From NCBI GenBank assembly GCA_964626965.1, contig CAZVHB010000001.1:1818-65817 (forward strand): 64,000 nt of DNA, read 5' to 3'. The notes under the pieces were generated by a model, which saw only the letters and a program-made list of their open reading frames with translations, was not told where the DNA came from and made no database searches. Shown piece after piece: positions 229 through 17,681 of the stretch. Both the position numbers and the translations under genes were made by a program. Each line of letters begins with the position of its first letter. The first letter of the stretch is position 1. The stretch is from an uncultured Candidatus Saccharibacteria bacterium. Its GTDB lineage: Bacteria; Patescibacteriota; Minisyncoccia; Phycocordibacterales; UBA9973.

Positions 229-2388
229 CTACTCAAAATGATGACTGATATAGTTCTGTGGAATGTATCCACCATCGATCACTTCTTTTGCTTCTTTTTG
301 TGCAGCTTCGACGAGTTTGATATTTTTGAGTGCCATCATACCGAGGTCTGAGATTCCCCATTGTTTCGTACCGGTGAGTTCTCCTGGACCGCGTGTTTCG
401 AGATCGAACTCGGCAAGTTCAAATCCATTTTTCGCTTGGGTAAAATGTTTCATACGAGTCTGTGTCTTTTCACTCTTTGATTCACAAAAAAGAAAACAGT
501 ATGGCTGTACGGAACTACGCTGAACTCGTCCGCGAAGTTGATGAAGTTGTGAAAGTCCAAATCGCTCTGCACCTTCAATGACGATGATCGTTGCATTTGG
601 GACATTCACTCCAACTTCAACAACAGATGTTGCGACGAGAATATCAATATGACCTTCTGTAAATTGCTTCATGACTTTTTCCTTTTCTATCTTGGTCATC
701 TTGGAGTGGAGACCGGCAATTTTTTGTTTTGGAAAGATTTTCTCTTGGAGTATTTTTACTTCTTGTGTAACAGAGCGCATCTGTAGTGCATTTTCTACTC
801 CCTCATCAGGCTCATCAATACGTGGACAGATGATATACGCTTGGCGACCTTCTTGTATCTTATCTGCGATAAAGTCATACATTTCTTGACGCTTTGGTGG
901 GAGAACAACTTTTGTTTCTACTACCTTTCGTCCTTTTGGAAGTTCATCGAGAAGTGTCAGGTCGAGTCCACCATAGATCGTGAGCGCAAGTGTTCGAGGA
1001 ATAGGAGTAGCGGTCATAGAAAGCAGGTGTGGCATATTGGTATCTTTTTTGGCGAGCATCTTGCGCTGATTTGCACCAAAGCGATGTTGTTCATCGATGA
1101 TCGTGAGTGCGAGATGTTTGAAGACGACACTCTTTTGAATGAGTGAATGTGTTCCGATAACGATACTGATTTCACCACTTGCGACCCATTTACCGAGTTG
1201 AGCTTTGGAAATTGTTGTCCATGTTGATACTTTTTCTCCAGCTTTATTACTTTTGGTTTCAACTTTCGATGGAAATTTCCGACAAGAGTTACTGGTGAGA
1301 AGTCCGATAGAGATACCTGTGTGACGGAAGTATTCAATGAAACTTTCAAATTGTTGTACAGCGAGGATCTCCGTTGGTGCCATGTAACCGACTTGAAGTG
1401 TCCCAAAGTTTTGATCTTTAGGACGTGTCTGTATCGCACTGTAGGCTGCACATGCAGCGACAAAGGTCTTTCCAGATCCGACATCTCCTTCGAGGAGGCG
1501 ACTCATCGGAAAACTTCGACTCATATCAGAGAGAATATCCCCGATAGATTTCTTTTGTGCAGTCGTTGCACCGAAAGGAAATCGATCGATGAAGTCTTGG
1601 ATATCAGTAATTTTTTTATCAATTGGGTACGCTTTTGTTTTTGCTAAAATCTTTTTTTCATACTGCGCGACGAGTTGGATTTTGTATATTTCTTCAAACG
1701 CAAATCTTTTTTGTGCAGCATCTCGATGGTTGTCATTTTGTGGCATATGGATCCAGACGATGGCCGTGGTTTTTTTCGGAAGTGTATATTTTTTTAAAAT
1801 TGCATCCGGTATTGGATCAACGAGTGTTTCGTGAATTCCAAGCTGGATAAGTTTTTTCACTGCGTGATACATCCACTTTGAGGTCACACCTTTACTTTCT
1901 TTATAGATAGGGAAGCCATACTGATTTTCACTGTCGTCATTTTTGAAGAGTGAGTCATGTGTGTCGATCGGTAGATTTTGAATATGTTCAATTTCTGGAT
2001 TGAGGAGTTTCTTTTTATTGTTGTAGACAGATACTTTTCCTGACACTTTCACATACTGACCCTCGTGATACATTTTGGCGATGTACTGCTGATTGAACCA
2101 GATGAGCTCGATATCAGTGCCTTCCATGTCAGTGAGTGTCGCTTTGGCTTGTAGTTTTTTGGTCGTATATGAGCGTCCGAGTTCTATTTTTTTGATAACA
2201 CCGTGAATCGTAACGTAGTCGCCATCAAGTACCGCATCGATAGTTTTAAATGCTGAGAGGTGAGAATACCTGACAGGGAAGTAGGTCAGGAGGTCTTGTG
2301 CTGTTATGAGTCCTATTTTCTCGAGCGCCTTTTTGTGTTCAGGTACGAGTTTGAAGAGTTTTACGAGTAATGTAGCGCCGTTGTCCAT
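229..2388 (-). CDS. recG: ATP-dependent DNA helicase RecG
   Basis: Walker A GDVGSGKT, DEQHRFG, LLSMTATPIPRTL and the N-terminal wedge domain. The start is probably the ATG at 2388 or 2394 (the ORF track extends to 2409), because TATACT immediately precedes it. Confidence 0.9.
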   Translation of the reverse strand: MDNGATLLVKLFKLVPEHKKALEKIGLITAQDLLTYFPVRYSHLSAFKTIDAVLDGDYVTIHGVIKKIELGRSYTTKKLQAKATLTDMEGTDIELIWFNQQYIAKMYHEGQYVKVSGKVSVYNNKKKLLNPEIEHIQNLPIDTHDSLFKNDDSENQYGFPIYKESKGVTSKWMYHAVKKLIQLGIHETLVDPIPDAILKKYTLPKKTTAIVWIHMPQNDNHRDAAQKRFAFEEIYKIQLVAQYEKKILAKTKAYPIDKKITDIQDFIDRFPFGATTAQKKSIGDILSDMSRSFPMSRLLEGDVGSGKTFVAACAAYSAIQTRPKDQNFGTLQVGYMAPTEILAVQQFESFIEYFRHTGISIGLLTSNSCRKFPSKVETKSNKAGEKVSTWTTISKAQLGKWVASGEISIVIGTHSLIQKSVVFKHLALTIIDEQHRFGANQRKMLAKKDTNMPHLLSMTATPIPRTLALTIYGGLDLTLLDELPKGRKVVETKVVLPPKRQEMYDFIADKIQEGRQAYIICPRIDEPDEGVENALQMRSVTQEVKILQEKIFPKQKIAGLHSKMTKIEKEKVMKQFTEGHIDILVATSVVEVGVNVPNATIIVIEGAERFGLSQLHQLRGRVQRSSVQPYCFLFCESKSEKTQTRMKHFTQAKNGFELAEFDLETRGPGELTGTKQWGISDLGMMALKNIKLVEAAQKEAKEVIDGGYIPQNYISHHFE

Positions 2389-2394
2389 AGCCAT

Positions 2395-2410
2395 AGTATA
2401 CCCCCACACC
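2395..2410 (-). promoter_or_regulatory. GGTGTGGGGGTATACT promoter-proximal motif abutting the recG start (left arm of a 24-bp inverted pair)
   Basis: The reverse complement reads tatatataGGTGTGGGGGTATACT-ATG. The same 16-mer recurs at 20460 and 11583, and the partner arm is at 2494-2517. Confidence 0.5.
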
Positions 2411-2500
2411 TATATATATAATAGTGGACATTTTTCAGATTTGTATTTTTTTTGGTTACTAAATTTTTGTATTACTTACAATAAAGTAGCCCTATATATA

Positions 2501-2516
2501 GGTATCGGGGTATACT
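2501..2516 (+). promoter_or_regulatory. GGTATCGGGGTATACT motif, right arm of the inverted pair, 6 nt upstream of the ATG at 2523
   Basis: tatatataGGTATCGGGGTATACT differs from the reverse complement of 2403-2426 at 3 of 24 positions. TATACT-N6-ATG. Confidence 0.5.
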
Positions 2517-2522
2517 ACATGT

Positions 2523-2981
2523 ATGATGTTGCGAAAGAAACGGAGAATAGGTTGGCTTGTCCTGTTTGCAGGATTTTCTCTGCTCGTTTTGTATTTTCTT
2601 TTTCTTGATACTCATAAAGCTAGTTCTTATAAAACAACAGTAATCACACTTGGAGGATCGGTATATACTGTCGCACTGGCTGATACACCAACGAAAAGAG
2701 CGCATGGGCTTTCTGATACTACACAGATCCCGTACGATGGAATGCTGTTTGTTTTTGATACACTAGATACATACAGTTTTTGGATGAAAGATATGCAGTA
2801 TCCTGTCGATTTTATATGGCTCGGTGAAGATAAAACAGTTGTTGATATGCATGAACATATTTCACCAGATACATATCCAAAGCAAATTACACCAATACAA
2901 CCAGTACTCTACGTACTTGAAGTTCCGTCTGGATTTATTCAAAGTCACGGTATTAAAAAAGGAGACTCTATTTCTTTTTAG
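2523..2981 (+). CDS. DUF192 (COG1430) domain protein with an N-terminal TM anchor
   Basis: GLS..IP.DGMLFVF...SFWMKDM..P.D.IWL, then YVLEVPSGF, as in the DUF192 family. Confidence 0.6.
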   Translation: MMLRKKRRIGWLVLFAGFSLLVLYFLFLDTHKASSYKTTVITLGGSVYTVALADTPTKRAHGLSDTTQIPYDGMLFVFDTLDTYSFWMKDMQYPVDFIWLGEDKTVVDMHEHISPDTYPKQITPIQPVLYVLEVPSGFIQSHGIKKGDSISF

Positions 2982-3830: not shown

Positions 3831-4781
3831 ATGAAAAAGATAATTCTTTTGGCGATAATCGCCTCGACCATTTTTTCTTTACCAACGTTTGCTCAGCAAA
3901 CGTACATCGCAACTGATGTAAACGGTAAGCGGATTGATTCTGTAATTTATTACAGCTTAGAATCAGCGCAAGCTGCGGCTAATGCGTATGACTTACGTCA
4001 AAAACAACAATTAACACAAACGTTCACGGCGAAAGACGAGAACGGAAATGTAATTGGAGTGTATGCTTCTCAGCTAGAGGCACAAAATGCTACTAACGCA
4101 GATTACATGAGGAGGCATCCAGCTCCTGCACAAGGTAACACAAATCAACAGCCTGCTGAAGATCCATATCTTACTCGAAAAAAAGCTCTTGATTTACAAA
4201 AGGATCAAGAAACAGTTAAAGCTTTGAAGTTGCAAAACGCTAATTCCAAAATCACTATTTTAAACAATGGTATTACTACTGTTGGAAATGGTGTGGGGAC
4301 TGGTGTTTACATTGGTCAACAGCTTGGTCTGATTGGAAATGGTGGTGGACGAGCACAGTTCAATCGCTGTCGCTATTGCAATGTTACCTATGTTGGCACT
4401 CAGCATGTATGTAATCAAAGTGGTGTTGGTGGTGTAATGCCTCCTAACAGTGGTTACAATGGTAGTTATTGCCAAGGGTGTCGCCAGACTTATTATGGCG
4501 GTAATCATTCTTGTGGTACTACTGGTTTCGGCCAGCAAACACAAGGTTGCTTTTGTACTTATTATCAAGGGCAAGGATATGTTCCTAACCAATATGGTAC
4601 GGGTACATGGTGTACTTGGAGAATGAATAGTAATGGCTCCGGGTATGGTTGGTTTCCATCAACCCAACAAGGTGGTTGTGGTAATCAATATGGTGACGGG
4701 ATGTTTCATACACCAATCATCAATCGCTTTGATAATGGAGGACCTGTTCCAGGTGCTCAATATGGTGTTCGCATTTATTAA
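3831..4781 (+). CDS. Secreted Cys/Gly/Tyr-rich protein (signal peptide ...TFAQQ)
   Basis: N-terminal signal peptide. C-terminal half has 16 Cys in CxxC/CxC-like spacing and G/Y/N-rich low complexity. Confidence 0.7.
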   Translation: MKKIILLAIIASTIFSLPTFAQQTYIATDVNGKRIDSVIYYSLESAQAAANAYDLRQKQQLTQTFTAKDENGNVIGVYASQLEAQNATNADYMRRHPAPAQGNTNQQPAEDPYLTRKKALDLQKDQETVKALKLQNANSKITILNNGITTVGNGVGTGVYIGQQLGLIGNGGGRAQFNRCRYCNVTYVGTQHVCNQSGVGGVMPPNSGYNGSYCQGCRQTYYGGNHSCGTTGFGQQTQGCFCTYYQGQGYVPNQYGTGTWCTWRMNSNGSGYGWFPSTQQGGCGNQYGDGMFHTPIINRFDNGGPVPGAQYGVRIY

Positions 4782-4947: not shown

Positions 4948-5904
4948 ATGAAAAAGTTACTCAGTTCTTTCCCAAAAATCCTACTCATTGTAGTAGGTTT
5001 AATAAATTTTAATTACAGTGCATTTGCACAACAGCCCGCCAAGAAAAAAAATATCACGTATTCAGCCGAAGCCGAACTTGCGTACGCGCAAGTATGTGCA
5101 GATTTAAAGGCAGAAAAAGATATTTTTAATTGTAGTCCTACGCTATGGCTACAACAAATCTGTGACAATGCAGTTGAGCAAGGCTATCCGAAATCAACTC
5201 CCGGTCAAATGCTTGATGTTATTCTTGATCCGAAGCAAACTTCTTTGAAGTGGCTTACACCCGATCAAGTTATCAATAGTTATTTGATGAGCGGTGGTTT
5301 TACGGATTGCTTAGCAAAGGAGAATGGATGGTATGTATGTGTTGGAGATTGTATTTTATTTCGACTTGGGCCAACAAATTGTTTGAACCCATGTAAATCT
5401 AAAAATACTGGAACTGGTCGTTACCCTAAAAGAGAACAACCTATTCCTCCTGCACCGCCAATCACTGTTGGACCTGCAAAAGTAACAAACACCGACGTTG
5501 GACCAAATGTAACAGTTACCCAAGCACAAGCACCGCAAAATGTAGTTTCCAATAGCTATAATACATATAACTTTGGAAGTACAACAGTGTCTGCTGTACC
5601 TCAGTTGATGCCGGTTTACTGGCCTCAACAACAACAGGTCAATGTGTATCAGCAACAGGGAACTGTGGCTCCTCCGATTAGCAACCAACCTACGTGTCCT
5701 AATGGGCAACAAGGGTACTGGTACACCTATCCTGATGGACAACGCCAATGGCTTTGTCCTTCATCTGGCACAGGTATCGCCCCTGGAACAGCTCCTGGTA
5801 CTAACGGTATAGGAATCCATCCTGGAGCCCCTGTGAACACCGGTGGTGTCATTACGAATCCTGGAGCAGGCACAAATGGTATCGGCATCACTCCTGGTGG
5901 TTAA
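4948..5904 (+). CDS. Secreted protein with a Cys-containing N-terminal domain and a Pro/Gly/Thr-rich C-terminal repeat region
   Basis: Signal peptide ...SAFAQQ. C-terminus has GTAPGTNGIGIHPGAP/GAGTNGIGITPGG repeats. Confidence 0.7.
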   Translation: MKKLLSSFPKILLIVVGLINFNYSAFAQQPAKKKNITYSAEAELAYAQVCADLKAEKDIFNCSPTLWLQQICDNAVEQGYPKSTPGQMLDVILDPKQTSLKWLTPDQVINSYLMSGGFTDCLAKENGWYVCVGDCILFRLGPTNCLNPCKSKNTGTGRYPKREQPIPPAPPITVGPAKVTNTDVGPNVTVTQAQAPQNVVSNSYNTYNFGSTTVSAVPQLMPVYWPQQQQVNVYQQQGTVAPPISNQPTCPNGQQGYWYTYPDGQRQWLCPSSGTGIAPGTAPGTNGIGIHPGAPVNTGGVITNPGAGTNGIGITPGG

Positions 5905-6085: not shown

Positions 6086-8959
6086 ATGAAAAACATATTT
6101 ACAAAAATTAGTTCAAAAGCATACATAGGCGCACTTGCGCTCTTTTTGGCTTTTGGTCTTACAAGCCAAGCATATGCTGGCGCAGTTGCATGGGCAGGTC
6201 CAACAGAGTTTGGTACTATCGCTAATGTTACCGGAACATCAATCGTCGAAAGTAGTCCTTATACACCATTTTCTTATGCAAATACATCTTCTGCGTCTGC
6301 AGGTGATAAAGTTGCGGTTATTGTGTATTTCCACAATAAAGGAAATGCTGCATCTCCAAACACATATATTAAAGTAAATAAATCAACCAACGGCTCTGCC
6401 TCTACGTTTACATTTACTGGTTCTGTGTCTGGTGGTGGAGCTTCAAAATCTGGCTCAACAACAGTGAACCTTTCTTCTAGTCAAACACTCACGTATATCC
6501 CAGGATCACTACGCGTTAGTAAAGACCGTGCTCCAGTAGGGTACTCAGTATCAAATGATACAGACGTTTTTTCAGGTGCTGGTCTTGATATTGGGATGGT
6601 ACAAGGAATGGATACTTGCGGAACAGACGCACTCTGTCACCAAGGTTCTGTTGCACTTGGATTTCAAGTAAGTTCAACTTCTACAACTCATCTTTGTTCA
6701 AATGGACAAGATGATGACGGAGATCTCCTTATCGATATGAATGACCCAGGATGTACTGACCCAACTGATGATAATGAATACAATCTTGTATCACCACTTG
6801 TGTGTACAATCAATTCTTTCACTGGATCACCTTTGACTGTTGCTTCTGGTGGATATACAAATCTTTCATGGAACACAACAAACTGTACAACTGTTACTGT
6901 TGATGGATTTACCTATCCTGTCGATGGTAGTGGAAATTTTGGCCCACTCTTTGTCGGTAAAACATACTATCTTGCTGCTTCAAACGGAACTAGTACTGAC
7001 TCAGAAACAGTCTATGTTGGTGTAAATACTGTTGCTTCAGCATGTACAATTGATACATACTATGCATCACCAACTACAGTAACTTCAGGTGGATATACAA
7101 CAATTTATTGGAATACATCAAACTGTACGACTGTTACTATCGATGGTATGCCTCAGTCAGTAGACGGAAGTAATTCTTTTGGTCCGATCTATTCTGGTAA
7201 AACATACAACATTGTTGCGTCAAACAGTACAAGTACTGATTCAGATAGTCTCTACGTTGGAACAAATTCTGTAAATAACTGTACGATTGATAATTTCTAC
7301 GCATCACCATCTACTGTTTCTTCAGGGAACTACACAACACTTCATTGGAATACATCAAACTGTGACCAAGTGACGATCGACGGTATTACTTATTATTCTG
7401 TTGATGGAAGTGGATCTTTTGGACCACTCTACAGTGGACGAAGTTACCAAATCCAAGCATGGAAAACTAGTCAATCTCCAGTTTCTCAAACAACATACGT
7501 ATCAGTTGATACATACTCTTCAAACAACTGTAGTATCGATACTTTTTATGCATCACCTACAACAGTAATCTCAGGTAGTACTACTCAACTCTTTTGGAAT
7601 ACATCAAACTGCGACCAGGTTACTGTTGATGGTATTAATTATGGTGTTGATGGAAGTGGTTATTTCGGCCCACTCTATAGTGGACGAAGTTACGTGCTCA
7701 ATGCGTGGAAAAATGGTCAAACTGTACGTACACAAACAGTCTATGTTGGTGTAAATTCTGTCAATAATTCATCTTACGCATGTAATGATGGGTATGATAA
7801 TGATGGTGACGGACGTGTAGACTATCCAAATGACGCTGGTTGTTACTCATCAACTGATAACGATGAATACAACTATGTTGCACCAGCTGTTTTGAATACT
7901 GTTGTGACAACACTCAACCCAAGTAATCTTACATCTTCTTCTGCACGTTTGAATGGATCTATCTTCAATGGTGGAAATAATGCAACTCAGTTTTATTTTG
8001 AATGGGGAACAGATACAAATTCTCTTCCAAACAAAACAAATTCACAAACAACCTTTTCAGATAATTCAGTAACGTACTTTGATACTGCATACAATCTTTC
8101 AACTGGTGTTACCTATTACTATCGTGCAGTTGCACAAAAAAGTAATGGAGTGGTCATCCGTGGCGATATTAGACAATTTCGCTTGATTGAAGTGGTAACT
8201 CCTGTATTTACAAATACAGTGACACGAGTAGTTACGGTGCCAGCTCCAGTAGTACAAGAGAGAGGAGTAGTTGTCGGACTTGGAACAAATCTTGTACAGC
8301 TTCGATATATTACGAATGATATCCTTAGTACAAATACTGGTGGTTTTGGAATCACTCAAACTGGTATCAATCAAAATGTAAACAATGGTGTACAAAATGT
8401 CTGTGTTGATGACAGTATTAAATTTGTTGTTGAATACAGAAATATCTCAACAATTACACTTAATAATGCAATCCTTCATATTGATATTCCAAAAGATGTC
8501 GACTTCCGAAGTTCATCAGCCGGAGTATTTAATAAAGCAGACAATACTATCACTATCAATGTAGGAACACTCACTCCTGGTCAATCAGGTCAAGTATCTT
8601 TCGACGGAATTGTTATGAGTAGTGCAGCAAATCGAGATCTTCTCGTTGTCCCAGCAACACTCTCATTTGAAAATCCAAACAATGGTGCTCGAGAAACAGC
8701 GATTGCGTACGGACTCGCAACGACTCAAAACTGTATTAAAAATGGGGGACTTGCCGGATTCGCATTCGGTTCAGGATTCTTTCCAGATACACTCTTTGGA
8801 TGGTTGCTCTTAATTCTCGTACTCCTCGCTCTGATTTACCTTCTTCGAAGAATGTTTATGGTGTATGGAATCGGACCAAGATCAAAGACCACAACCACAA
8901 CGACTACACAAAGACATTACGAGGATATGGATATTCCAACAGCGCCATACCAACACTAA
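6086..8959 (+). CDS. Large cell-surface protein (957 aa): signal peptide, 4 tandem ~80-aa repeats flanked by Asp-rich CxxGxDxDGDG motifs, a fibronectin-III-like domain, a DUF11-like domain and a C-terminal TM anchor
   Basis: Repeats CTIDxFYASPxTVxSGxYTxLxWNTSNC..VT.DG..Y.VDGSG.FGP.YSG. Also NATQFYFEWGTD (fn3-like), TPGQSGQVSFDGIV (DUF11-like) and a C-terminal GSGFFPDTLFGWLLLILVLLALIYLLRR. Confidence 0.75.
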   Translation: MKNIFTKISSKAYIGALALFLAFGLTSQAYAGAVAWAGPTEFGTIANVTGTSIVESSPYTPFSYANTSSASAGDKVAVIVYFHNKGNAASPNTYIKVNKSTNGSASTFTFTGSVSGGGASKSGSTTVNLSSSQTLTYIPGSLRVSKDRAPVGYSVSNDTDVFSGAGLDIGMVQGMDTCGTDALCHQGSVALGFQVSSTSTTHLCSNGQDDDGDLLIDMNDPGCTDPTDDNEYNLVSPLVCTINSFTGSPLTVASGGYTNLSWNTTNCTTVTVDGFTYPVDGSGNFGPLFVGKTYYLAASNGTSTDSETVYVGVNTVASACTIDTYYASPTTVTSGGYTTIYWNTSNCTTVTIDGMPQSVDGSNSFGPIYSGKTYNIVASNSTSTDSDSLYVGTNSVNNCTIDNFYASPSTVSSGNYTTLHWNTSNCDQVTIDGITYYSVDGSGSFGPLYSGRSYQIQAWKTSQSPVSQTTYVSVDTYSSNNCSIDTFYASPTTVISGSTTQLFWNTSNCDQVTVDGINYGVDGSGYFGPLYSGRSYVLNAWKNGQTVRTQTVYVGVNSVNNSSYACNDGYDNDGDGRVDYPNDAGCYSSTDNDEYNYVAPAVLNTVVTTLNPSNLTSSSARLNGSIFNGGNNATQFYFEWGTDTNSLPNKTNSQTTFSDNSVTYFDTAYNLSTGVTYYYRAVAQKSNGVVIRGDIRQFRLIEVVTPVFTNTVTRVVTVPAPVVQERGVVVGLGTNLVQLRYITNDILSTNTGGFGITQTGINQNVNNGVQNVCVDDSIKFVVEYRNISTITLNNAILHIDIPKDVDFRSSSAGVFNKADNTITINVGTLTPGQSGQVSFDGIVMSSAANRDLLVVPATLSFENPNNGARETAIAYGLATTQNCIKNGGLAGFAFGSGFFPDTLFGWLLLILVLLALIYLLRRMFMVYGIGPRSKTTTTTTTQRHYEDMDIPTAPYQH
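6803..7774 (+). repeat. Four tandem ~240-bp (79-83 aa) intragenic repeats
   Basis: Each repeat starts with a TGT (Cys) codon, at 6803, 7043, 7280 and 7529. Confidence 0.8.
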
Positions 8960-8989
8960 TCTGCGCGTATAAAATTTATCACACAAATG

Positions 8990-9025
8990 CACAAAAAACC
9001 GGAATTGCCTCCGGTTTTTTGTTTG
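8990..9025 (+). terminator. Rho-independent terminator
   Basis: aaccggaattgcctccggtt followed by ttttttg. Confidence 0.75.
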
Positions 9026-9062
9026 TCTATAAGTTTATTTGGAAAGCTGATACAATGAGCAT

Positions 9063-11459
9063 ATGCAGAAATCACCCTACACCGAAACCTACATTCTCCT
9101 CGATGCACATGCGATTATTCACCGTGCGTACCATGCGATTCCTGACTTTACGACAAAAAGTGGTCAGCCGACAGGAGCTCTCTTTGGACTCATGAGTATG
9201 CTCATTCGCATTATGACCGAGATCAAACCAGACTATATTATTGCATGCTATGATCTACCCGATAAAACATTTCGTCATATTGCCTACGATGCATACAAAG
9301 GCACTCGCGCAAAGACTGATGATATTCTTGTCGAGCAACTCATCAAATCTCGCAGTATCTTTGAACGGTGTAATATCCCTATTTACGATGCAAAAGGATA
9401 TGAAGCAGACGACGTACTCGGCACGCTCGCTGATATCTTGAAGAAAAATAAGAAAAATAAAGTGATCATTGCGTCAGGTGATATGGATACGATGCAGTTG
9501 ATTGATAGTGACCAAGTTGTTGTGTATACACTCAAGAAGGGGATCACTGATACTATTTTTTATGATGAAGAAGCTGTGGTAGAGCGGTATGGATTTTCGC
9601 CTTCTTCGATTCCAGACTATAAAGGATTACGTGGCGATACATCAGATAATATTATCGGTATCAAAGGTATTGGTGAAAAGACTGCAACAATTCTCATTCA
9701 GAAATACGGTACGATAGAACAGATGTATGTTGCGCTTAAAAAAGACGAAGCAAAATTTAAAAAAGACACAGGTCTCACGGACAGACTTGTGGGGCTTATT
9801 CGTGATAATGAAGAAGAAGCACTTTTTTCAAAAGAGCTCGCGACCATACAACGAGATTTACCAATTAATCTTACGCCTTCTGTTCTTCATCATACTATCT
9901 TTAATAAAGATGACGTGATTGCGCTCTGTGAAGAACTTGAATTCAAAAGCCTCATTCCACGTATCTCAAATTTGTATACGAATAATACAGAAACAATTTC
10001 AAACAAGAAGACAGTTTCAAAAGAGGATACAAGTGAAGTGGTCCCAATAGTAGAGGTAGATCCAAAGTATCTTCTTGCTGTATCACTCCTTGATTCAGAG
10101 AAAATCAAACCAACAGCGGAGGATATTTTGGCCTATAGTAACCAAGGTGATTTGGGTGAAGCATATGCAACTATAGAGAAAGAAATAGTAAAAAATAATC
10201 TCGAGTATGTGTGGAAGGAGATTGAAATACCTCTCTATGATATTGTCCAAGAAATGTCAGCTACTGGTATTACGATTGATATTCCATATTTTAAAAAAAT
10301 GAGTGAAAAACTCCACAGTGAACTCGACACATTAGAAAAAAGAATTTGGCAACTTGCTGGACAAGAGTTCAATATTAACTCACCAAAACAAATGGGAGAA
10401 ATATTATTTACAGTGCTCAATTTAGGTGAAGGGCAGAAGAAAATCAAAAAAACTGCAGGTGGGGCTATTACGACAAAAGAATCCGAGCTTGAAAAGTTGC
10501 GTGATGCTCATCCTATTATCTCGTATATCCTCGAATACCGAGAGATTCAGAAGCTTGTTTCAACATATATTGATAGTATTCCACTCTTAGTTGGTGCTGA
10601 TGGACGAATCCACTCTACTTTCAATCAACTTGGTGCGGCAACTGGACGTTTTTCTTCAAACGACCCAAACCTTCAGAATATTCCTATCAAAACAGAACGG
10701 GGAAGACTTATTCGTGGTGGTTTTGTTGCAAAGTCAGGTTATGTATTTTTGGGCTTTGACTATTCTCAGATTGAGCTACGTGTTGGCGCGCTTCTTTCAC
10801 AAGATCCGGACATGCTTGATACATTCATTCATGGTAAAGATATTCATACAACTGTGGCGAAAAAAGTTTTTAATGTTGAAGAGTCTGGTGTCACTCCTGA
10901 CATGCGTCGCAAAGCAAAAGTGATTAATTTTGGAATTATGTATGGTATGGGTGCGACAGCGCTCTCAGAAAATTTGGGTGTCCCACGAAAAGAAGCCCAG
11001 CTTTTTCTAGAAGAATATAAAAAACAATTTCCTGGGCTCAATATGTACCTTGAATCTATCGTAGAATTTGCAAAGACACACAAATATACGGAAACATTTT
11101 TTGGAAGAAAGAGAAATTTTTCAAAAATAAATTCAGTCATTCCATTTATTCGTGCAATGTATGAACGTATGGCAGTCAATGCACCAGTGCAGGGGACAGC
11201 TGCAGATATTATTAAGCTTGCGATGTTGCATTCACGTAAAATACTTGCGGAACACAAACTTGATATACATGCACAGCTCGTTTTGCAAGTGCATGATGAA
11301 ATTATTTTTGAAGTTGAAGAAAAATATCAACAAGAAGTAGCGGAACTCATCGAAAAGACGATGGAAAATATCATCCCGAAAAATATGAAAAAAGATCTTA
11401 TTTTTCCACCTTTTTCAACTTCTGTTGCGGTCGGGAAAACCTGGGCAGATTTGAAGTAA
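9063..11459 (+). CDS. polA: DNA polymerase I (5'-3' exonuclease plus polymerase; the 3'-5' exonuclease domain looks reduced)
   Basis: Motif A DYSQIELR, motif B RRKAKVINFGIMYG, motif C QVHDEIIFE. TACAAT-N6-ATG lies at the start. Confidence 0.9.
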   Translation: MQKSPYTETYILLDAHAIIHRAYHAIPDFTTKSGQPTGALFGLMSMLIRIMTEIKPDYIIACYDLPDKTFRHIAYDAYKGTRAKTDDILVEQLIKSRSIFERCNIPIYDAKGYEADDVLGTLADILKKNKKNKVIIASGDMDTMQLIDSDQVVVYTLKKGITDTIFYDEEAVVERYGFSPSSIPDYKGLRGDTSDNIIGIKGIGEKTATILIQKYGTIEQMYVALKKDEAKFKKDTGLTDRLVGLIRDNEEEALFSKELATIQRDLPINLTPSVLHHTIFNKDDVIALCEELEFKSLIPRISNLYTNNTETISNKKTVSKEDTSEVVPIVEVDPKYLLAVSLLDSEKIKPTAEDILAYSNQGDLGEAYATIEKEIVKNNLEYVWKEIEIPLYDIVQEMSATGITIDIPYFKKMSEKLHSELDTLEKRIWQLAGQEFNINSPKQMGEILFTVLNLGEGQKKIKKTAGGAITTKESELEKLRDAHPIISYILEYREIQKLVSTYIDSIPLLVGADGRIHSTFNQLGAATGRFSSNDPNLQNIPIKTERGRLIRGGFVAKSGYVFLGFDYSQIELRVGALLSQDPDMLDTFIHGKDIHTTVAKKVFNVEESGVTPDMRRKAKVINFGIMYGMGATALSENLGVPRKEAQLFLEEYKKQFPGLNMYLESIVEFAKTHKYTETFFGRKRNFSKINSVIPFIRAMYERMAVNAPVQGTAADIIKLAMLHSRKILAEHKLDIHAQLVLQVHDEIIFEVEEKYQQEVAELIEKTMENIIPKNMKKDLIFPPFSTSVAVGKTWADLK

Positions 11460-11486
11460 ATCCTTTGGACATTACATGATACTAGT

Positions 11487-11602
11487 GATATACCCCGACA
11501 CCAATCCTTATTTTTTTACCCTAGATTGAGGTTTTTATAAGTAAGGTGGTATGAATGTTATTTCGTTGTAAGTTGTAAAAAGATTGGTGTGGGGGTATAA
11601 TA
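11487..11602. repeat. Inverted pair of the GATTGGTGTSGGGGTATA motif (20 bp, 2 mismatches) flanking ~76 bp
   Basis: 11487-11506 gatataccccgacaccaatc versus 11583-11602 gattggtgtgggggtataat. The right arm precedes the 11625 gene; the left arm has no cognate gene. Confidence 0.6.
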
Positions 11603-11624
11603 TACATATATTTTTAATAAACAT

Positions 11625-12095
11625 ATGATTAAAATCAGTAAAAAACATCTTATTCACAGCATCCTCGGCCACTCGTACCTCGCTTTTGTGGTATTTTTTT
11701 GTGGTGCTATATTTTTTGACCAGATTATTCCTATCACCCGATTAGATACAGCGTATCTTCAATATATTGGTGCGGCGCTCGTACTCTTTGGGACAAGCCT
11801 TATTTGCTGGGCTCAAGTTGATTCTCAGAAATCACTCCATGAAAGACATCAAGAGAAACCAGGAGAACAAGCTTTTTTCCATGGTCCATACAAATTTATT
11901 CGTACTCCTACTCAAGTCGGACTCTTTTTTCTGTTTCTCGGACTCGGTCTTACTCTTGGTAATGTTTGGGTGATTATTTTTTCAGTTATTTCAATCATCG
12001 TCAATTTCACTATCTTTGTAAAACAACAAGAACATATTCTTGCTAAACGTTATGGAGAGAGTTACATTTCATATAAGACAAAAGTTCACTTTTAA
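11625..12095 (+). CDS. Membrane methyltransferase of the isoprenylcysteine carboxyl methyltransferase / phospholipid methyltransferase family
   Basis: GPYKFIRTPTQVG matches the RHP..G-type motif, and there is a C-terminal E...L...YGESYISYK. Four TM helices. Confidence 0.55.
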   Translation: MIKISKKHLIHSILGHSYLAFVVFFCGAIFFDQIIPITRLDTAYLQYIGAALVLFGTSLICWAQVDSQKSLHERHQEKPGEQAFFHGPYKFIRTPTQVGLFFLFLGLGLTLGNVWVIIFSVISIIVNFTIFVKQQEHILAKRYGESYISYKTKVHF

Positions 12096-12098
12096 TCT

Positions 12099-12794
12099 AT
12101 GATTCACGTCATTATTGCTCCGGACTATGATTTTTTTACTAAACAAAAGGAGTCTCTAAAAAAGAAGCTTTCTCTCTCGAACGAATACAATGTGGAAGAG
12201 GTAAGTGGTTGTCCTCTCGTACACGCTGATTTTAGTGTGGAAGGTTTTTTTGAACGACCACCATATCTTCTCGTATATAAATATCTTTTTTCTGAAATTA
12301 GAGAGAACCAGTATGAAGAGTACATCACTGACTTGGCTCAAACCAAACACACGGTTCTTTTGTATGAAAAAACAAACAGTAAAGAATTTACGCAATTCTT
12401 AAAAGACCACAGTATTACTCCAGTAGAAGTAAAGACGGTAGTTGAGAAAAAAGAAGTCACACCTTTTTCTTTTACCGATGCAGTGATTGCAAGAAATAAA
12501 AAAGATGCGTGGATTGAATTTATGGCACTTCGAAACAAACAGGTTGAAATGATGAGCATTACCTCGGGTCTTATTTGGGCGATGAAGAGTTTACTCCTTG
12601 TTCTTACTCAAAAAGATGTCTCGAATACTGGGCTTAATCCGTATGTGTATAGTAAAATGAGTAAAAAGGTGAGTGTCTGGAAAGTATCTGAAGCACAGGC
12701 TTTTCTTCGAAGCTTACTGTACTTGAGTCTTGAAGAGCAATTCGATGAAGAAGCTCAGAGTATCAAATTAGAACAGTTGTTGTTTCAGTTGTAA
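12099..12794 (+). CDS. Hypothetical protein (possibly a divergent DNA polymerase III delta-like subunit)
   Basis: 3-nt gap after the upstream gene. No firm motif. The delta-subunit idea rests only on size and context. Confidence 0.3.
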   Translation: MIHVIIAPDYDFFTKQKESLKKKLSLSNEYNVEEVSGCPLVHADFSVEGFFERPPYLLVYKYLFSEIRENQYEEYITDLAQTKHTVLLYEKTNSKEFTQFLKDHSITPVEVKTVVEKKEVTPFSFTDAVIARNKKDAWIEFMALRNKQVEMMSITSGLIWAMKSLLLVLTQKDVSNTGLNPYVYSKMSKKVSVWKVSEAQAFLRSLLYLSLEEQFDEEAQSIKLEQLLFQL

Positions 12795-13013: not shown

Positions 13014-13487
13014 ATGAAAAAATCTCAAAAAGGTTTTACACTCATCGAACTTTTGATTGTTATCGCAATCATCGGTGTACTCGCAGCTGTTCTTATTCCT
13101 AACTTGCTCGCAGCTCGTAACAAAGGAGTAGACGCAGCTATTAAAGCTAACCTTGCTGCTACAAAATCTCAAGCAACATTGTTCTACGAAACATCACAAG
13201 TATTTACTGGTGTGTGTGCAACTGGATCTTCAACAGCTATCGGTGATATGGTTCTCAGTGCAGCACAAAAACTCTCTGGAGCTAACACTGTAACTGCTGC
13301 TACATGGGCGTACTCTTCAACTGGTGCGGCTAACTCTGCTGTGTGTCATGATAACGCTACAGCATGGGCAGCGATGGTATCTCTCAAGAACCCATCAACT
13401 ACATCTGGTGGATGGTGTGTTGACTCAACTGGTGCTACAAAAGAAACAGCTACTGCACTCGCAGCTGGTATTGCTGTTTGTCCATAA
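13014..13487 (+). CDS. Type IV pilin (major pilin paralog 1)
   Basis: Class III signal MKKSQKG/FTLIELLIVIAIIGVLAAV with a C-terminal Cys-Cys disulfide loop. Confidence 0.9.
   Translation: MKKSQKGFTLIELLIVIAIIGVLAAVLIPNLLAARNKGVDAAIKANLAATKSQATLFYETSQVFTGVCATGSSTAIGDMVLSAAQKLSGANTVTAATWAYSSTGAANSAVCHDNATAWAAMVSLKNPSTTSGGWCVDSTGATKETATALAAGIAVCP
13028..13158 (+). repeat. 131-bp segment identical to 13640-13770 (conserved 5' part of two pilin genes)
   Basis: Exact nucleotide identity across the prepilin N-terminal helix coding region. Confidence 0.9.
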
Positions 13488-13505
13488 GGAATTTATATTC
13501 TTTAC

Positions 13506-13537
13506 AAAAAAAACACCCAATCGGGTGTTTTTTTGTG
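13506..13537 (+). terminator. Rho-independent terminator
   Basis: aaaaaaaacaccc-aatc-gggtgttttttt. Confidence 0.8.
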
Positions 13538-13582
13538 TAAAAGGAGCTTGTGCTTTAAAAAAGCAAGATGTATACTGTTCTT

Positions 13583-14098
13583 ATGAAGATTTATATAAAA
13601 CATAAAGAAAAATTCGCGAGGGAAAGTATTATAAATAGTAAAGGTTTTACACTCATCGAACTTTTGATTGTTATCGCAATCATCGGTGTACTCGCAGCTG
13701 TTCTTATTCCTAACTTGCTCGCAGCTCGTAACAAAGGAGTAGACGCAGCTATTAAAGCTAACCTTGCTGGTATACGTTCAGAAGATATTTTATATTATGA
13801 AAATAACAACTCTTCTTTTTTAAACATCTGTACTACGTCAGTTACCGGTCTCGCTGACCAACTTGATAGTGCCGCAAAAAAGCTCTCTGGTTCTAATACT
13901 GTTGGTGGTTCAGCTCAAGCTTTTACCTACTCTGCAACTGGTGGTACTGGTTCTGCTGTGTGTCATGACTCTGCTACGGGTTGGGCTGCGGTTGTGTCGC
14001 TCAAGAACCCATCAACTGCATCTAGTGGATGGTGTATTGATTCCGTGGGTGTTTCAAAAGAAGTTACTACACTCGGAGCTAATATACGTGCTTGTTAA
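13583..14098 (+). CDS. Type IV pilin (paralog 2)
   Basis: Same N-terminus as paralog 1, variable middle, conserved C-terminal CHD...W..VSLKNPST...GWC. TGTATACT-N6-ATG at 13583. Confidence 0.85.
   Translation: MKIYIKHKEKFARESIINSKGFTLIELLIVIAIIGVLAAVLIPNLLAARNKGVDAAIKANLAGIRSEDILYYENNNSSFLNICTTSVTGLADQLDSAAKKLSGSNTVGGSAQAFTYSATGGTGSAVCHDSATGWAAVVSLKNPSTASSGWCIDSVGVSKEVTTLGANIRAC
13640..13770 (+). repeat. Second copy of the 131-bp identical pilin 5' segment
   Basis: Identical to 13028-13158. Confidence 0.9.
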
Positions 14099-14109
14099 TC
14101 AATTATTTT

Positions 14110-14156
14110 CCTCACTACAAAAAAACACCCGATTGGGTGTTTTTTTGTAGTGAGGA
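14110..14156 (+). terminator. Rho-independent terminator (extended stem)
   Basis: cctcactacaaaaaaacacccgattgggtgtttttttgtagtgagg. The core hairpin is the reverse complement of the one at 13506. Confidence 0.8.
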
Positions 14157-14223
14157 AACACGCTATGTGAATATCTTCTGTTTACTTCTTTCTTTTTTAA
14201 AAGTATCTGGGTATACTATACGT

Positions 14224-14700
14224 ATGAAAAAAATATATAAATCTCAAAAAGGTTTTACACTCATCGAACTTTTGATTGTTATTGCAATTATTAGTGTTAT
14301 TGCCTCTGTGCTTATTCCAAACGTCATGGCTGCGCGAGACAAAGGAACAACCGCTGCGCAAAGAGCCGAAGTAAAAACAGTACAAACAGAAGCAGTTGTT
14401 TTATGGGAAGCTAATAGTGGTAATCTTACCACTGTGTGTACTAACAGTACTGGGGCTCCTCGTACAGCACTCTTGAGCGCCCTGAAAAAGGGCTATCCAA
14501 ATGGTCAAATTGGAATTTTGGCGAACTCCATAGCATCGAGTTCTGGTAACGGTGCTGGTGTGTGCCACAGTACGGCATCTGCATACGGGGCAGAAATACC
14601 TCTTAAGTCTGGTGGATTTTTGTGTATGGATTCTACTGGTTTAGTGGTAGAATCTCTGACGACAAAAATTGGAACAGTGAATGATACATCTTGTTTATAA
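14224..14700 (+). CDS. Type IV pilin (paralog 3, divergent)
   Basis: MKKIYKSQKG/FTLIELLIVIAIISVIASV. GGTATACT-N6-ATG. Confidence 0.85.
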   Translation: MKKIYKSQKGFTLIELLIVIAIISVIASVLIPNVMAARDKGTTAAQRAEVKTVQTEAVVLWEANSGNLTTVCTNSTGAPRTALLSALKKGYPNGQIGILANSIASSSGNGAGVCHSTASAYGAEIPLKSGGFLCMDSTGLVVESLTTKIGTVNDTSCL

Positions 14701-14730
14701 TTTGTTTCTAAAATACAAAGGTTATATATT

Positions 14731-14768
14731 ACAAACCCAAGCAAACTAGTTTGCTTGGGTTTGTTTGT
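14731..14768 (+). terminator. Rho-independent terminator
   Basis: aaacccaagcaaactagtttgcttgggttt followed by gtttg. Confidence 0.75.
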
Positions 14769-14795
14769 TCCTTGCTATAGTAGTATACTGTGTAC

Positions 14796-15623
14796 ATGTT
14801 TGAATTATATGGAATCTTCGTTTTTATTTTAGGAATGATTATCGGTTCATTTTTAAATGTTGTCATTTATCGGTTCAATACAGGACGGGGACTTGGCGGA
14901 CGATCATTTTGTTTTACCTGTAGACGGACACTGTCTTGGCACGAACTTGTACCGATCGTCAGCTTTGTTAATCAGAAAGGGCGCTGTAAAGGTTGTGCTT
15001 CAAAAATCTCTTGGCAGTATCCACTCGTTGAAGCTATCACCGGCCTGGTATTTGTTTCGCTCTTTATAAAATTTTTTCCAACACTTGATCTGACGCTTTC
15101 CGGTATTTGGCCAAGTTTGTTTTACCTTATTTTCTACACGTATATATTTTGCCTCCTTATTGTCATTTCAGTGTATGACTATCATCATCAGATTATTCCC
15201 AATAAACTTGTTTGGCTATTTAACATCCTCGCATTTTTAAGCCTCTTTTTGTTTGTGGGTGTTTCAGGTAGTGCTGTATACAGTATTCATCTTCCAACAC
15301 TTATGTCTATTGTGGCGGGGCCACTTATTGCGTTACCGTTTTTCTTTCTGTGGATGATTACCAAAGGGCGGGGTATGGGATTTGGTGACGTAAAGCTCGC
15401 ACTCGGTATTGGCTGGCTTCTTGGACTTTTTGCAGGACTTGCGACAGTTATTGTCTCTTTTTGGATTGGAGGATTTTGTGCGCTGATTGTACTCTTTCTT
15501 AAGAAAAATAAATATACACTCAAGAGTCATATTGCATTCGGTCCATTTCTTTGTATCGCTACGTTCCTTGTTTTTTTATTTAATGTTACAATTATTGATA
15601 TATTGCTACGGTTTCACTTTTAA
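14796..15623 (+). CDS. pilD: Prepilin peptidase (A24 family)
   Basis: GSFLNVVIYR, a CxxC...CxxC zinc knuckle and the catalytic GFGDVKL. TATACT-N6-ATG at 14796 (the ORF track starts at a GTG at 14790). Confidence 0.9.
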   Translation: MFELYGIFVFILGMIIGSFLNVVIYRFNTGRGLGGRSFCFTCRRTLSWHELVPIVSFVNQKGRCKGCASKISWQYPLVEAITGLVFVSLFIKFFPTLDLTLSGIWPSLFYLIFYTYIFCLLIVISVYDYHHQIIPNKLVWLFNILAFLSLFLFVGVSGSAVYSIHLPTLMSIVAGPLIALPFFFLWMITKGRGMGFGDVKLALGIGWLLGLFAGLATVIVSFWIGGFCALIVLFLKKNKYTLKSHIAFGPFLCIATFLVFLFNVTIIDILLRFHF

Positions 15624-15631
15624 TACACTCA

Positions 15632-16372
15632 ATGGAAAATAGATTATCACAATTACAAAATAGATTAGCTTGTAAACAGAGCGTTAAAAAAAGCGGAGCT
15701 TTTTTTAACGCTGGTTTTACAGTTATCGAAATGGTGACAGTGATTGCTATTTTTACAATACTTCTCGGAATCACTATGGCCAACTTTGACCTTTTTAAAA
15801 AGACGACTGATTTTAATCTCTCCGCTCAAGAGGTAGCATTTTTTATCAAGAGTCAACAACAAAATGCTATGGCTGGAAGATTTCCAGAAATTGATCCGTA
15901 TGTAAAAAATTATCCACCCACATCATGGCGCCCTTCATATGGACTCTATTTTAGCGTAGCCAACTCAGATAGAGTGTTACAGTTTTATGATAGTGATAAT
16001 GACTTCCTCATGACTGCGCCGTCAGGAAACACTTCGTGCGCAAATGACCCAGAGTATGAATGTATGAAAGAGATTATTTTTGACAAGATGACACTTGTGA
16101 GTATCTGTGATATGGATCCAAGTGGGTGTATTTCACGTAGTTCAGTTTCTGTTGTGTTTAAGCGTCCATTTCCTGATGCTCGTATTAATGCAGACTATAC
16201 TCCTTTTGATGTGTATGATTGTGTTGTAAATATGATATGTAATGCTACTAGTGTACCTACCCCAGTAGCAAACACTATAGAATTACGTTTTGAAACACCT
16301 GGTGTTACTGGTGCCAATATTGTCTCTATAAATCCACTTGGTGTTTTGACTGTTAGAAGAAGTAGTATATAA
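15632..16372 (+). CDS. Minor pilin / pseudopilin (FimT/GspH-like)
   Basis: Prepilin signal ...NAG/FTVIEMVTVIAIFTILLGI. Confidence 0.7.
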   Translation: MENRLSQLQNRLACKQSVKKSGAFFNAGFTVIEMVTVIAIFTILLGITMANFDLFKKTTDFNLSAQEVAFFIKSQQQNAMAGRFPEIDPYVKNYPPTSWRPSYGLYFSVANSDRVLQFYDSDNDFLMTAPSGNTSCANDPEYECMKEIIFDKMTLVSICDMDPSGCISRSSVSVVFKRPFPDARINADYTPFDVYDCVVNMICNATSVPTPVANTIELRFETPGVTGANIVSINPLGVLTVRRSSI

Positions 16373-16375
16373 CAC

Positions 16376-17065
16376 ATGATACACAAAATAGAGAATACAA
16401 AAAAATATAATCAAAATTTCATGGCCGGGTTCACACTCATTGAGCTTCTGGTTGCAACGTCGATATTTTTGATGACGATCACCGTTGGTATTACATCACT
16501 TCTTATGATGCATCGGACACATCACATTACTCAGTATAAAAAAGAGCAGTTGGATGCACTTCACGCGGTAATGGAAGACATGGTGCGAAATATTCGTGTG
16601 GGAACAAAAATCAGATGTGATATCACTGGTGCGTATAGTGGTACTGTGCTTGATCCTTTCACTGGTGCAACTGAAATAAGAACCCCTCTGTCGTGTTTTA
16701 ATAATTACACCACAGATCAACCTCAGAGTAATTCAATTGCTTTTGAAGGGATTGATGGGGATCCCTTAGATGATTTGGATCAAATTTCATATTATATTGA
16801 GTATGATGCTATTCTTGATAAGCGTGTCATATATAAGGCACACGATGTCGATTTTTATAATGATTTCACTAAATCAATCCGTGTCTCTCCTGATTCTGTA
16901 GATATCGATTTTGATAAATCTGGCTTCACTGTCATTCATGCTGAAGATTCTGACTTAAAACAACCACTCGTGTTGATTCGTTTGGTTGGTACGGTGACGT
17001 ACCAAAACGATAGTACTCCATTTTCTCTTCAAACAGCCGTGATGCAAAGAAATCCAAAACTATAA
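16376..17065 (+). CDS. Minor pilin (PilW/GspJ-like)
   Basis: ...FMAG/FTLIELLVATSIFLM. Confidence 0.7.
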   Translation: MIHKIENTKKYNQNFMAGFTLIELLVATSIFLMTITVGITSLLMMHRTHHITQYKKEQLDALHAVMEDMVRNIRVGTKIRCDITGAYSGTVLDPFTGATEIRTPLSCFNNYTTDQPQSNSIAFEGIDGDPLDDLDQISYYIEYDAILDKRVIYKAHDVDFYNDFTKSIRVSPDSVDIDFDKSGFTVIHAEDSDLKQPLVLIRLVGTVTYQNDSTPFSLQTAVMQRNPKL

Positions 17066-17068
17066 TAT

Positions 17069-17680
17069 ATGCAATATACACATATTACAAAAAAATACTT
17101 GCCCAGCACTAAATTAATGTTCTCTAAATATAGAAAATTTAGTACTGGATTCACCCTAGTGGAAACTCTCGTAGGTATTTTTATCTTTCTTTTAGCGTAT
17201 ATGGCACTTGCAAGTGTTAATGGTAGTTCTCTTCAAGATATTAGTATCACAAGCAGAAAACTTACTGCGGAGTATCTTGCGGAAGAGGGGATTGAATACG
17301 TAAAGTATTTTCAGAAATCATACGATAATGATCCGACACCAAAGGCATCATTTCTTGGTGTGACTGATCCAATGCCTTGTACGAGCTCACCTTCTGCTGT
17401 TGGGTGTGATTTTTATCTTAATCCTGGATCTCAAGATGTTACTGTGGATACTTACACAGGGCCTTTGAACCAATACCCGTATGGTTTTCTTGTACCAAGT
17501 TCTGTGGGTAGTGGTTATTCGGGTTTGACTACTGTCTCTGGTTATGAAAGGCATATTTATATAGATGATATTACTCAAAATGCGCTAGAGAGTCAGACAG
17601 TAAAAGTCACCTCCGAAGTAACCTATCTTCCAAGCCAGCCACCTGTGGTGGTTACCGCAATAATTCATTTCAATTTTTAA
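17069..17680 (+). CDS. Minor pilin (PilV/GspI-like)
   Basis: ...FSTG/FTLVETLVGIFIFLLAY. Confidence 0.7.
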   Translation: MQYTHITKKYLPSTKLMFSKYRKFSTGFTLVETLVGIFIFLLAYMALASVNGSSLQDISITSRKLTAEYLAEEGIEYVKYFQKSYDNDPTPKASFLGVTDPMPCTSSPSAVGCDFYLNPGSQDVTVDTYTGPLNQYPYGFLVPSSVGSGYSGLTTVSGYERHIYIDDITQNALESQTVKVTSEVTYLPSQPPVVVTAIIHFNF

Positions 17681-17681
17681 T

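Follow-up and report, generated by a model that had tools for sequence, protein, structure and literature searches.

Two genes in a 64,000-nucleotide stretch of DNA from an uncultured Candidatus Saccharibacteria bacterium (contig CAZVHB010000001.1, positions 1,818 to 65,817; hereafter the window) encode secreted proteins that end in the same C-terminal tail. These are W1 (open reading frame, or ORF, 6086..8959 on the + strand, 957 amino acids) and W2 (ORF 23523..24476 on the - strand, 317 amino acids). The core of the tail is L-G-A-x-x-F-G-x-G-F-F-P-x-[TSN]-L-x-G-W, followed by about 15 hydrophobic residues and an R or K. This tail is real, widespread, lineage-specific and uncatalogued. The reading we favor is that it is a retained type I membrane anchor, in which the motif would dock a conserved partner or self-associate and the peptides at the extreme C-terminus would bind partners inside the cell. 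We give this reading a probability of roughly one half.

The cell envelope and host attachment of the Patescibacteria, or candidate phyla radiation (CPR), are largely unknown (PMC5220378), and highly expressed hypothetical proteins with immunoglobulin-like (Ig-like) domains are suspected adhesins (PMC10936435). With one conserved module on hundreds of exported Ig-like proteins, the surface proteome of these ultrasmall organisms could be listed from sequence alone.

The tail of W1 and W2 and its distribution

The original prediction was that the proteins starting at 6086 and 23523 share a C-terminal tail with a motif, a transmembrane (TM) helix and a basic residue in that order. Both ORFs are as described. 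Toward their C-termini, W1 and W2 each have a beta-sandwich followed by a juxtamembrane motif, a TM helix and a basic residue, the last three of which form a real conserved module. The last ~170 residues of the two proteins align with 30% identity (BLASTP, E = 2e-18). They are therefore paralogs across the whole C-terminal domain and tail and not merely over a short motif. The region singled out in W1, 8737..8959, corresponds to residues ~885-957 and is the tail proper. A six-frame regular-expression scan found the motif at only two sites in the window, W1 and W2. A degenerate DNA pattern for G-x-G-F-F-P-x-T-x-x-G-W-h-h matched the window once, at 8768..8808, and matched none of 100 shuffles.

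In W1, the juxtamembrane signature LAGFAFGSGFFPDTLFGW (residues 889-906; 8750..8803, + strand) is the conserved tail core, as identified by the logo described below and by the DNA pattern. It leads into the TM helix (residues 903-920) and Arg-Arg (921-922), together at 8792..8851 on the + strand. The cytoplasmic tail, residues 923-957 (8852..8956, + strand), has a variable Thr-rich linker and then a conserved terminal peptide, HYEDMDIPTAPYQH (8915..8956). W2 ends in ...RRGNAHGHDAHGHGH. Its signature, LGASAIGSGSNFFGGTLLGW (residues 265-284; 23625..23684, - strand), is divergent in the alignment, with a two-residue insertion and Gly replacing Pro, and it has W2-like relatives (P0112 and P0061/L053). 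The W2 TM helix (281-298), the basic RFFLRR (299-304) and the Gly/His-rich cytoplasmic end GNAHGHDAHGHGH (305-317) lie at 23526..23636 on the - strand.

A logo was built from 158 proteins and reads L(78%)-G(74)-A(65)-x-[AV]-F(70)-G(81)-[AS]-G(96)-F(93)-F(67)-P(96)-x-[TSN]-[LI]-[FL]-G(95)-W(99). Past the W are ~14 hydrophobic residues, then R/K (97%) and [RY]; the residue beyond the conserved R/K is R or K in ~50% of the proteins and Y in 30%, and most members continue further. Columns 18-35 of the tail profile are hydrophobic and fit for a TM helix. Conservation reaches 93-99% at five positions (G, F, P, G and W), compared to ~25-35% identity in the adjoining domain. The proposed I-Y-L-x-R ending was borne out only in its basic residue, the rest being a weak preference.

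An AlphaFold2 model was made of W1 residues 734-957 (mean predicted local distance difference test score, pLDDT, of 76). In this model, the G-S-G-F-F-P-D-T motif is non-helical and unpacked (pLDDT ~57-60), the TM helix begins directly after the T/S/N position (model residues 170-192, pLDDT 87-93) and the cytoplasmic tail is disordered. T, S and N are classical helix N-cap residues, which suggests a structural reason for that position instead of a scissile bond. The AY-x3-C that had been counted as the start of the tail belongs elsewhere, since RETAIAYGLATTQ is the last beta-strand (869-881) of the upstream domain in the model. A Cys within 25 residues of the motif is present in only 35 of 150 members; 32 of them have a partner Cys 80-150 residues upstream. 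From the sequences, the Cys just before the motif is consistent with an intradomain disulfide partner, and Cys773 and Cys883 of W1 are a probable pair.

A homolog search with the 202-residue C-terminus as query returned three close homologs and one distant protein, P0004, which has a Pfam DUF11 match and the same G-S-G-F-F-P-T-N-V-F-G-W-L-L-L stretch. A profile of 45 positions that covers just the tail (A2) was then used in an exhaustive hidden Markov model (HMM) search of 1.84 billion cluster representatives. This search found 827 protein clusters at E <= 1e-3, 66 of them at E <= 1e-10. A word-indexed search with the same profile gave only 7 matches, with TM words dominating, and the exhaustive search was used instead. 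In the best 150 of the 827 matches, the match lies at most ~110 residues from the C-terminus, in proteins 66-1775 amino acids long, and the motif can be recognized by eye in each.

At the DNA level, 185,579 species, each represented by a single genome, were scanned with a pattern, which gave 63 loci. True tails account for 62 of these, nearly all in metagenome-assembled genomes (MAGs) of Patescibacteria; the 63rd, in a membrane protein of Pseudomonadota, matched by chance. The record titles, whose labels are unverified, name Nomurabacteria, Paceibacterota, Minisyncoccia, "Patescibacteria group" and, for many third-party annotation (TPA) MAGs, "uncultured Candidatus Saccharibacteria". With this strict pattern, at least seven MAGs have two loci each. 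One locus (L018, CAYSXR010000021.1) is labeled "uncultured Gammaproteobacteria"; its tail protein is nearly identical in type to one from a Patescibacteria-type MAG (L048), and the label is probably a binning or labeling error.

The tail-bearing proteins are called "hypothetical" in their source records. No Pfam or NCBIfam model covers the tail, and no description of it was found in the literature on DUF11 or on sortase in CPR. A profile of the tail could join either database, where its carriers are now "hypothetical".

Carrier proteins and their cytoplasmic ends

Among 121 full-length members, 96 have a signal-peptide-like N-terminus by a heuristic of hydrophobicity and charge, and most of the others look like truncated starts. 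An internal TM segment is absent in 120 of the 121. The signal peptide and the lack of internal TM segments give the carriers a type I topology. When 71 full-length members were compared with Pfam, DUF11 was found in 59, FN3-like models (Pur_ac_phosph_N, PhoD_N and fn3) in ~20, CARDB, TIG and Filamin in a few, and enzyme domains in none. These Sec-exported proteins, with only Ig-like or FN3-like domains, look like adhesins or envelope proteins.

The two proteins had been labeled DUF11 surface proteins. The label fits the family, given the 59 matches among the homologs; W1 and W2 themselves have no match to Pfam DUF11 (PF01345) at E < 0.1. Both align with DUF11-matching homologs in an iterated profile, and the modeled domain is a beta-sandwich. 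This profile covers the 140 residues just before the tail and groups together 133 of 147 members, W1 and W2 included; the tail is thus mostly inherited as one module with a DUF11-type stalk. Another 13 members have no DUF11-like domain anywhere, and their tail sits behind Thr/Ser-rich linkers, which shows that the tail is separable from the stalk. A Foldseek search of the PDB with the model returned generic Ig-like stalks (E ~1e-5, TM-score ~0.4), namely integrin alpha calf-2 with its TM segment, the Gram-positive pilins BcpA and SpaD, and cohesins. The window encodes a third DUF11 protein at 39330..41282 (650 amino acids; PF01345, 29 bits); it has an N-terminal TM anchor at residues ~77-100 and no C-terminal tail.

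W1 (6086..8959, + strand) is a multi-domain surface protein that is Sec-exported, as a topology heuristic gives it a signal peptide (residues 1-31) and a single C-terminal TM segment. After the signal peptide come an acidic double-disulfide repeat (~204-233), four ~80-residue Cys-containing repeats starting at residues 240, 320, 399 and 482, a second acidic repeat (~566-600), an FN3-like domain (~603-702), the DUF11-like domain and the tail. The DUF11-like domain is the membrane-proximal beta-sandwich, residues 770-881 (8393..8728, + strand), modeled with a pLDDT of 87-98 and with homologs that match PF01345. In the repeat region (residues 204-600; 6695..7885), the two acidic Cys repeats match NF033662, "acidic double-disulfide repeat", at 35 bits, under the cut-off of 41. 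They bracket the four repeats, which are diverged and each open with C-[TS]-I-[DN] and have a second Cys inside. Tandem repeats were not detected in W1 at the DNA level. Judged by its sequence and by BLASTP against W1, W2 (23523..24476, - strand) is secreted and consists of an N-terminal signal peptide, then a region of low complexity, the DUF11-like domain and the tail. A Logan contig from SRR12712864 encodes the exact W2 protein as well.

Beyond the end of the profile, members have a median of 18 further residues (range 0-72). Several classes of ends recur. W1 and its relatives end in HYEDMDIPTAPYxH, and others end in KKTTTTT[IV][EQ][HE], TPLKHA or QKTA. A further class has [DN]xLPH behind 30-70 variable residues, and W2 and many others have a Gly/His-rich end, ...HGHGGHH. 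Across nine W1-subfamily members, pairwise identity averages 0.65 in the beta-sandwich, 0.70 in the motif and TM helix, 0.21 in the cytoplasmic linker (10-28 residues long) and 0.67 in the terminal 14-mer. The linker drifts, yet the terminal 14-mer matches the folded domain in conservation, so the cytoplasmic ends are under selection. A segment that was simply cut off and discarded would hardly be expected to show selection at its extreme C-terminus.

His is the final residue in 77 of 158 representatives and makes up 9.6% of tail residues. In independent genome loci, His is final in 27 of 53 tail proteins, compared to 9 of 280 neighboring ORFs (Fisher p = 1e-17, with counts that ignore sequence relatedness and an enrichment that spans several tail classes). 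We know of no system that explains a selected C-terminal His, and the terminal-His peptides are an unexplained, testable feature.

A retained anchor or a cleaved sorting signal

In the favored reading, the tail would be a lineage-specific C-terminal membrane-anchor module of ~45 residues, belonging to the Patescibacteria (class Paceibacteria/Minisyncoccia and relatives) and usually co-inherited with a membrane-proximal DUF11-type beta-sandwich. It would hold its carriers in the cytoplasmic membrane as type I proteins. The Gly-rich hydrophobic lead-in, L-G-A-x-x-F-G-x-G, could act as a hinge on the outer leaflet, F-F and W could form an interfacial aromatic belt, Pro and the T/S/N residue may cap the N-terminus of the helix, and R/K may fix its inner end. 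The motif is conserved far beyond the needs of a plain anchor, which suggests docking of a conserved membrane partner or self-association. The TM helix and cytoplasmic tail would be retained, and the subfamily-specific end-peptides probably bind cytoplasmic partners, which would link the stalk outside with the interior of the cell.

The tail was compared with the eight attributes of tripartite C-terminal protein-sorting signals (Haft, bioRxiv 10.1101/2023.06.07.544157). Four of them, attributes 2, 3, 4 and 6, are seen here: several copies per genome (two in the 64-kb window and two loci in at least seven MAGs), the near-invariant signature of the 158-protein logo, a strongly hydrophobic segment that fits a TM helix, and an N-terminal signal peptide (96/121). 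Attribute 1 is absent, because the tail is not at the extreme C-terminus. Attribute 5 is two to five basic residues at the end; the tail has one R/K at 97%, with more sequence after it in most members. For attribute 7, carriers unrelated outside the signal, 133 of 147 members have the DUF11-like domain in common and 13 have none. For attribute 8, homologs with another signal or none, the window has the DUF11 protein at 39330..41282.

The motif had been said to match no known CTERM signal, and this was confirmed. When ten isolated tails were compared with the NCBIfam CTERM models at E <= 10, the best scores were 12.9 bits for JDVT (cut-off 27), 12 for PEF (23) and 12.6 for MYXO (20), each for one tail and over the TM stretch only. 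Pfam and NCBIfam as a whole, applied to the whole proteins and to the ten tails (E <= 10), gave scattered sub-threshold matches to the TM segment alone and nothing consistent. "PACE-CTERM-PROT" (NF033506) scored 11 bits, compared to its cut-off of 110, and was dismissed.

The tail resembles LPXTG signals in that both end Sec-exported, Ig-like, multi-domain surface proteins with the order of motif, hydrophobic helix and basic residue. DUF11 domains in Firmicutes also often precede LPXTG. The tail differs in that its motif, G-F-F-P-x-[TSN]-[LIFV]-x-G-W, is fused directly to the helix without a small residue after the Thr, in that LPXTG models give not even sub-threshold matches, and in its long conserved cytoplasmic extensions. 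The PGF-, PEF-, PEP-, MYXO- and JDVT-CTERM systems (archaeosortase, exosortase and myxosortase) also have a lineage-restricted signature that abuts a TM helix and occurs several times per genome. The tail differs from them in that it lies short of the extreme C-terminus, has a weak basic cluster and is mostly tied to one upstream domain, and no cognate enzyme was found for it. The domain upstream of the tail places most carriers beside the DUF11 (PF01345) and TIGR01451 repeat proteins; the difference is that the Pfam model excludes the tail, that W1 and W2 fall below Pfam detection and that the 39330..41282 protein is anchored at its N-terminus.

The top PDB matches, 3ije and 8t2v among them, align the beta-sandwich and helix to integrin alpha subunits. 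In these subunits, as in the tail proteins, an Ig-like stalk stands next to the membrane and leads into a single TM helix and a short tail that bears a conserved peptide, and we use them as a working analogy for coupling between outside and inside. There is no sequence relationship (9-15% identity), and the structural likeness is generically Ig-like. The integrin GFFKR motif is cytoplasmic; the GFFP of the tail, by contrast, is extracellular.

The main alternative is a new class of cleaved C-terminal sorting signal, which could be called GFFP-GW-CTERM. The carriers would be exported by Sec and held by the TM helix, a dedicated sortase-, exo/archaeosortase-, rhombosortase- or CPBP-like enzyme would cut at the outer membrane face, and the ectodomain would be transferred to peptidoglycan, lipid or S-layer. 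We consider this possible and rather unlikely. It would account for the signature being much more conserved than the flanking domain, for the restriction to one lineage, for the portability of the tail onto 13 proteins with Thr/Ser-rich linkers and no DUF11-like domain, and for the four attributes above. Sortase genes are also reported in more than half of CPR genomes, with a patchy distribution outside Microgenomates that counts on the other side (Méheust et al. 2019, PMC6744442). The would-be cleavage site is unlike that of LPXTG-type signals, as the sequence F-P-x-[TSN]-[LIFV]-[FL]-G-W puts a bulky L, I, F or V after T/S/N and the predicted helix already starts there. The cytoplasmic extensions are long, with conserved terminal peptides in at least four classes, the basic cluster is often a single R/K that is not terminal, and ~90% of carriers have the same upstream domain. 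No TLxTC sortase motif was found in the six frames of the window or in 405 neighboring ORFs, and no sortase, rhomboid, CPBP or exosortase-like gene, nor any other candidate protease, recurs in the neighborhoods of the 62 loci or in the window. A sortase substrate was rejected on the grounds of the missing TLxTC motif and the bulky, helical residue after the Thr. Of the original interpretation, the order of motif, TM helix and basic residue was supported, and a cleaved sorting signal of the LPXTG or PEP-CTERM type was not.

Some observations weigh against a retained anchor. A sorting signal would likewise show the motif/TM/basic order, a near-invariant signature, several copies per genome and restriction to one lineage, and the 13 carriers without the DUF11-like domain are what such a signal would give. 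About 10% of members end at most 7 residues past the profile end, shortly after the basic residue, as classical signals do. The motif is of low confidence in the AlphaFold2 model, which is of a monomer. In addition, the counts ignore the relatedness of sequences.

In another explanation, the partner or processing factor of the tail would be DUF192, a small beta-barrel protein that is exported, and the motif would be the site that DUF192 docks to or cleaves. This seems improbable to us. DUF192 is the most frequent neighbor of tail-bearing genes in other genomes; it adjoins the tail gene, or is one gene away, in 24 of 62 loci, with several subfamilies and in both orientations. One locus (L053) has the order RecG-DUF192-(W2-like protein), and the window has RecG-DUF192 at 229..2981, with W2 elsewhere. 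On the other hand, DUF192 does not adjoin W1 or W2 in the window, and the solved DUF192 structures (3PJY and 3M7A) have no functional annotation. Functionally unrelated genes also show strongly conserved order in these loci, such as tail-TsaE-PolA-PEMT-HolA. Since these are housekeeping genes, synteny is evidently well conserved in these genomes, and DUF192 is treated as a lead only. To our knowledge, DUF192 is also widespread outside Patescibacteria, where the tail is absent.

The simplest explanation is an ordinary TM anchor of two paralogs that arose by gene duplication, with a motif that has no special function. W1 and W2 are indeed paralogous over ~170 residues, and most carriers have a common DUF11-like domain. 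The original prediction had set beforehand that confinement of the tail to these two paralogs, together with the lack of a co-varying protease family, would make it a mere shared anchor. The profile search found 827 clusters. That number and the 93-99% conservation of five positions contradict this explanation, and the presence of the tail on proteins without the DUF11-like domain also speaks against it. We regard it as very unlikely.

The anchor and signal readings could also be joined in a broader proposal, namely that the GFFP-GW tail is a new surface-protein system specific to Patescibacteria. It would be either a new sorting-signal class, possibly linked to DUF192, or a set of integrin-like type I adhesins that couple host attachment to the interior of these ultrasmall episymbionts via conserved end-peptides, which usually end in His. 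We hold this proposal only tentatively. The tail in either case is a concrete motif for questions of processing or partner binding.

Gene neighborhoods and other features of the window

The 405 ORFs of the 63 loci were clustered, and representatives were annotated with Pfam. Two gene orders are recurrent. In Group A, a long W1-like tail protein is followed by TsaE (22 loci), PolA (18), a membrane methyltransferase of the PEMT/ICMT family (12) and the DNA polymerase III delta subunit (12). DsbB and a thioredoxin-like gene often come next, and 7 loci have a PilB-type ATPase close by. Conserved order of this type is seen in L006, L013, L022, L027, L029, L042-L044, L047 and L050. The window at 6086..12794 has the order W1-PolA-PEMT/ICMT-like-(holA-like), with TsaE absent. 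Group B has shorter tail proteins of several classes and is the group with the DUF192 gene (L003, L010, L012, L053, L062 and 19 more).

The DUF192 gene of the window (2523..2981, + strand; PF02643, E = 1e-26) is 3.1 kb upstream of W1. Between the two genes, 3831..4781 and 4948..5904 encode adjacent secreted proteins of ~317 amino acids, with C-terminal halves of low complexity rich in Q, N, P, G and Y and no Pfam match.

Two other gene products of the window were considered as partners of the tail. The putative prepilin peptidase (14790..15623) was considered as a processing enzyme due to the resemblance of the tail to a G-F motif before a hydrophobic stretch. It was rejected on topology, as the tail motif would face outward and prepilin leaders are cut on the cytoplasmic side. 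The PEMT/ICMT-like methyltransferase (11625..12095), a recurrent neighbor, was considered as a modifier of the C-terminal His, and nothing was found beyond its synteny with housekeeping genes.

The window has ~38% G+C and contains a type IV pilin cluster with a prepilin peptidase, as well as PolA, LigA, RecG, a SecDF-like gene and other housekeeping genes, in keeping with a genome of the Patescibacteria/CPR. The unannotated products of 33919..34467, which has no Pfam match, and 62343..62825 are paralogs (31% identity over 127 amino acids, E = 1e-14). The putative type IV pilus cluster, judged from its sequence, extends over 13014..18380, with three pilin-like genes that carry G-F-T-L-I-E-L, the putative prepilin peptidase and four more pseudopilin-like genes.

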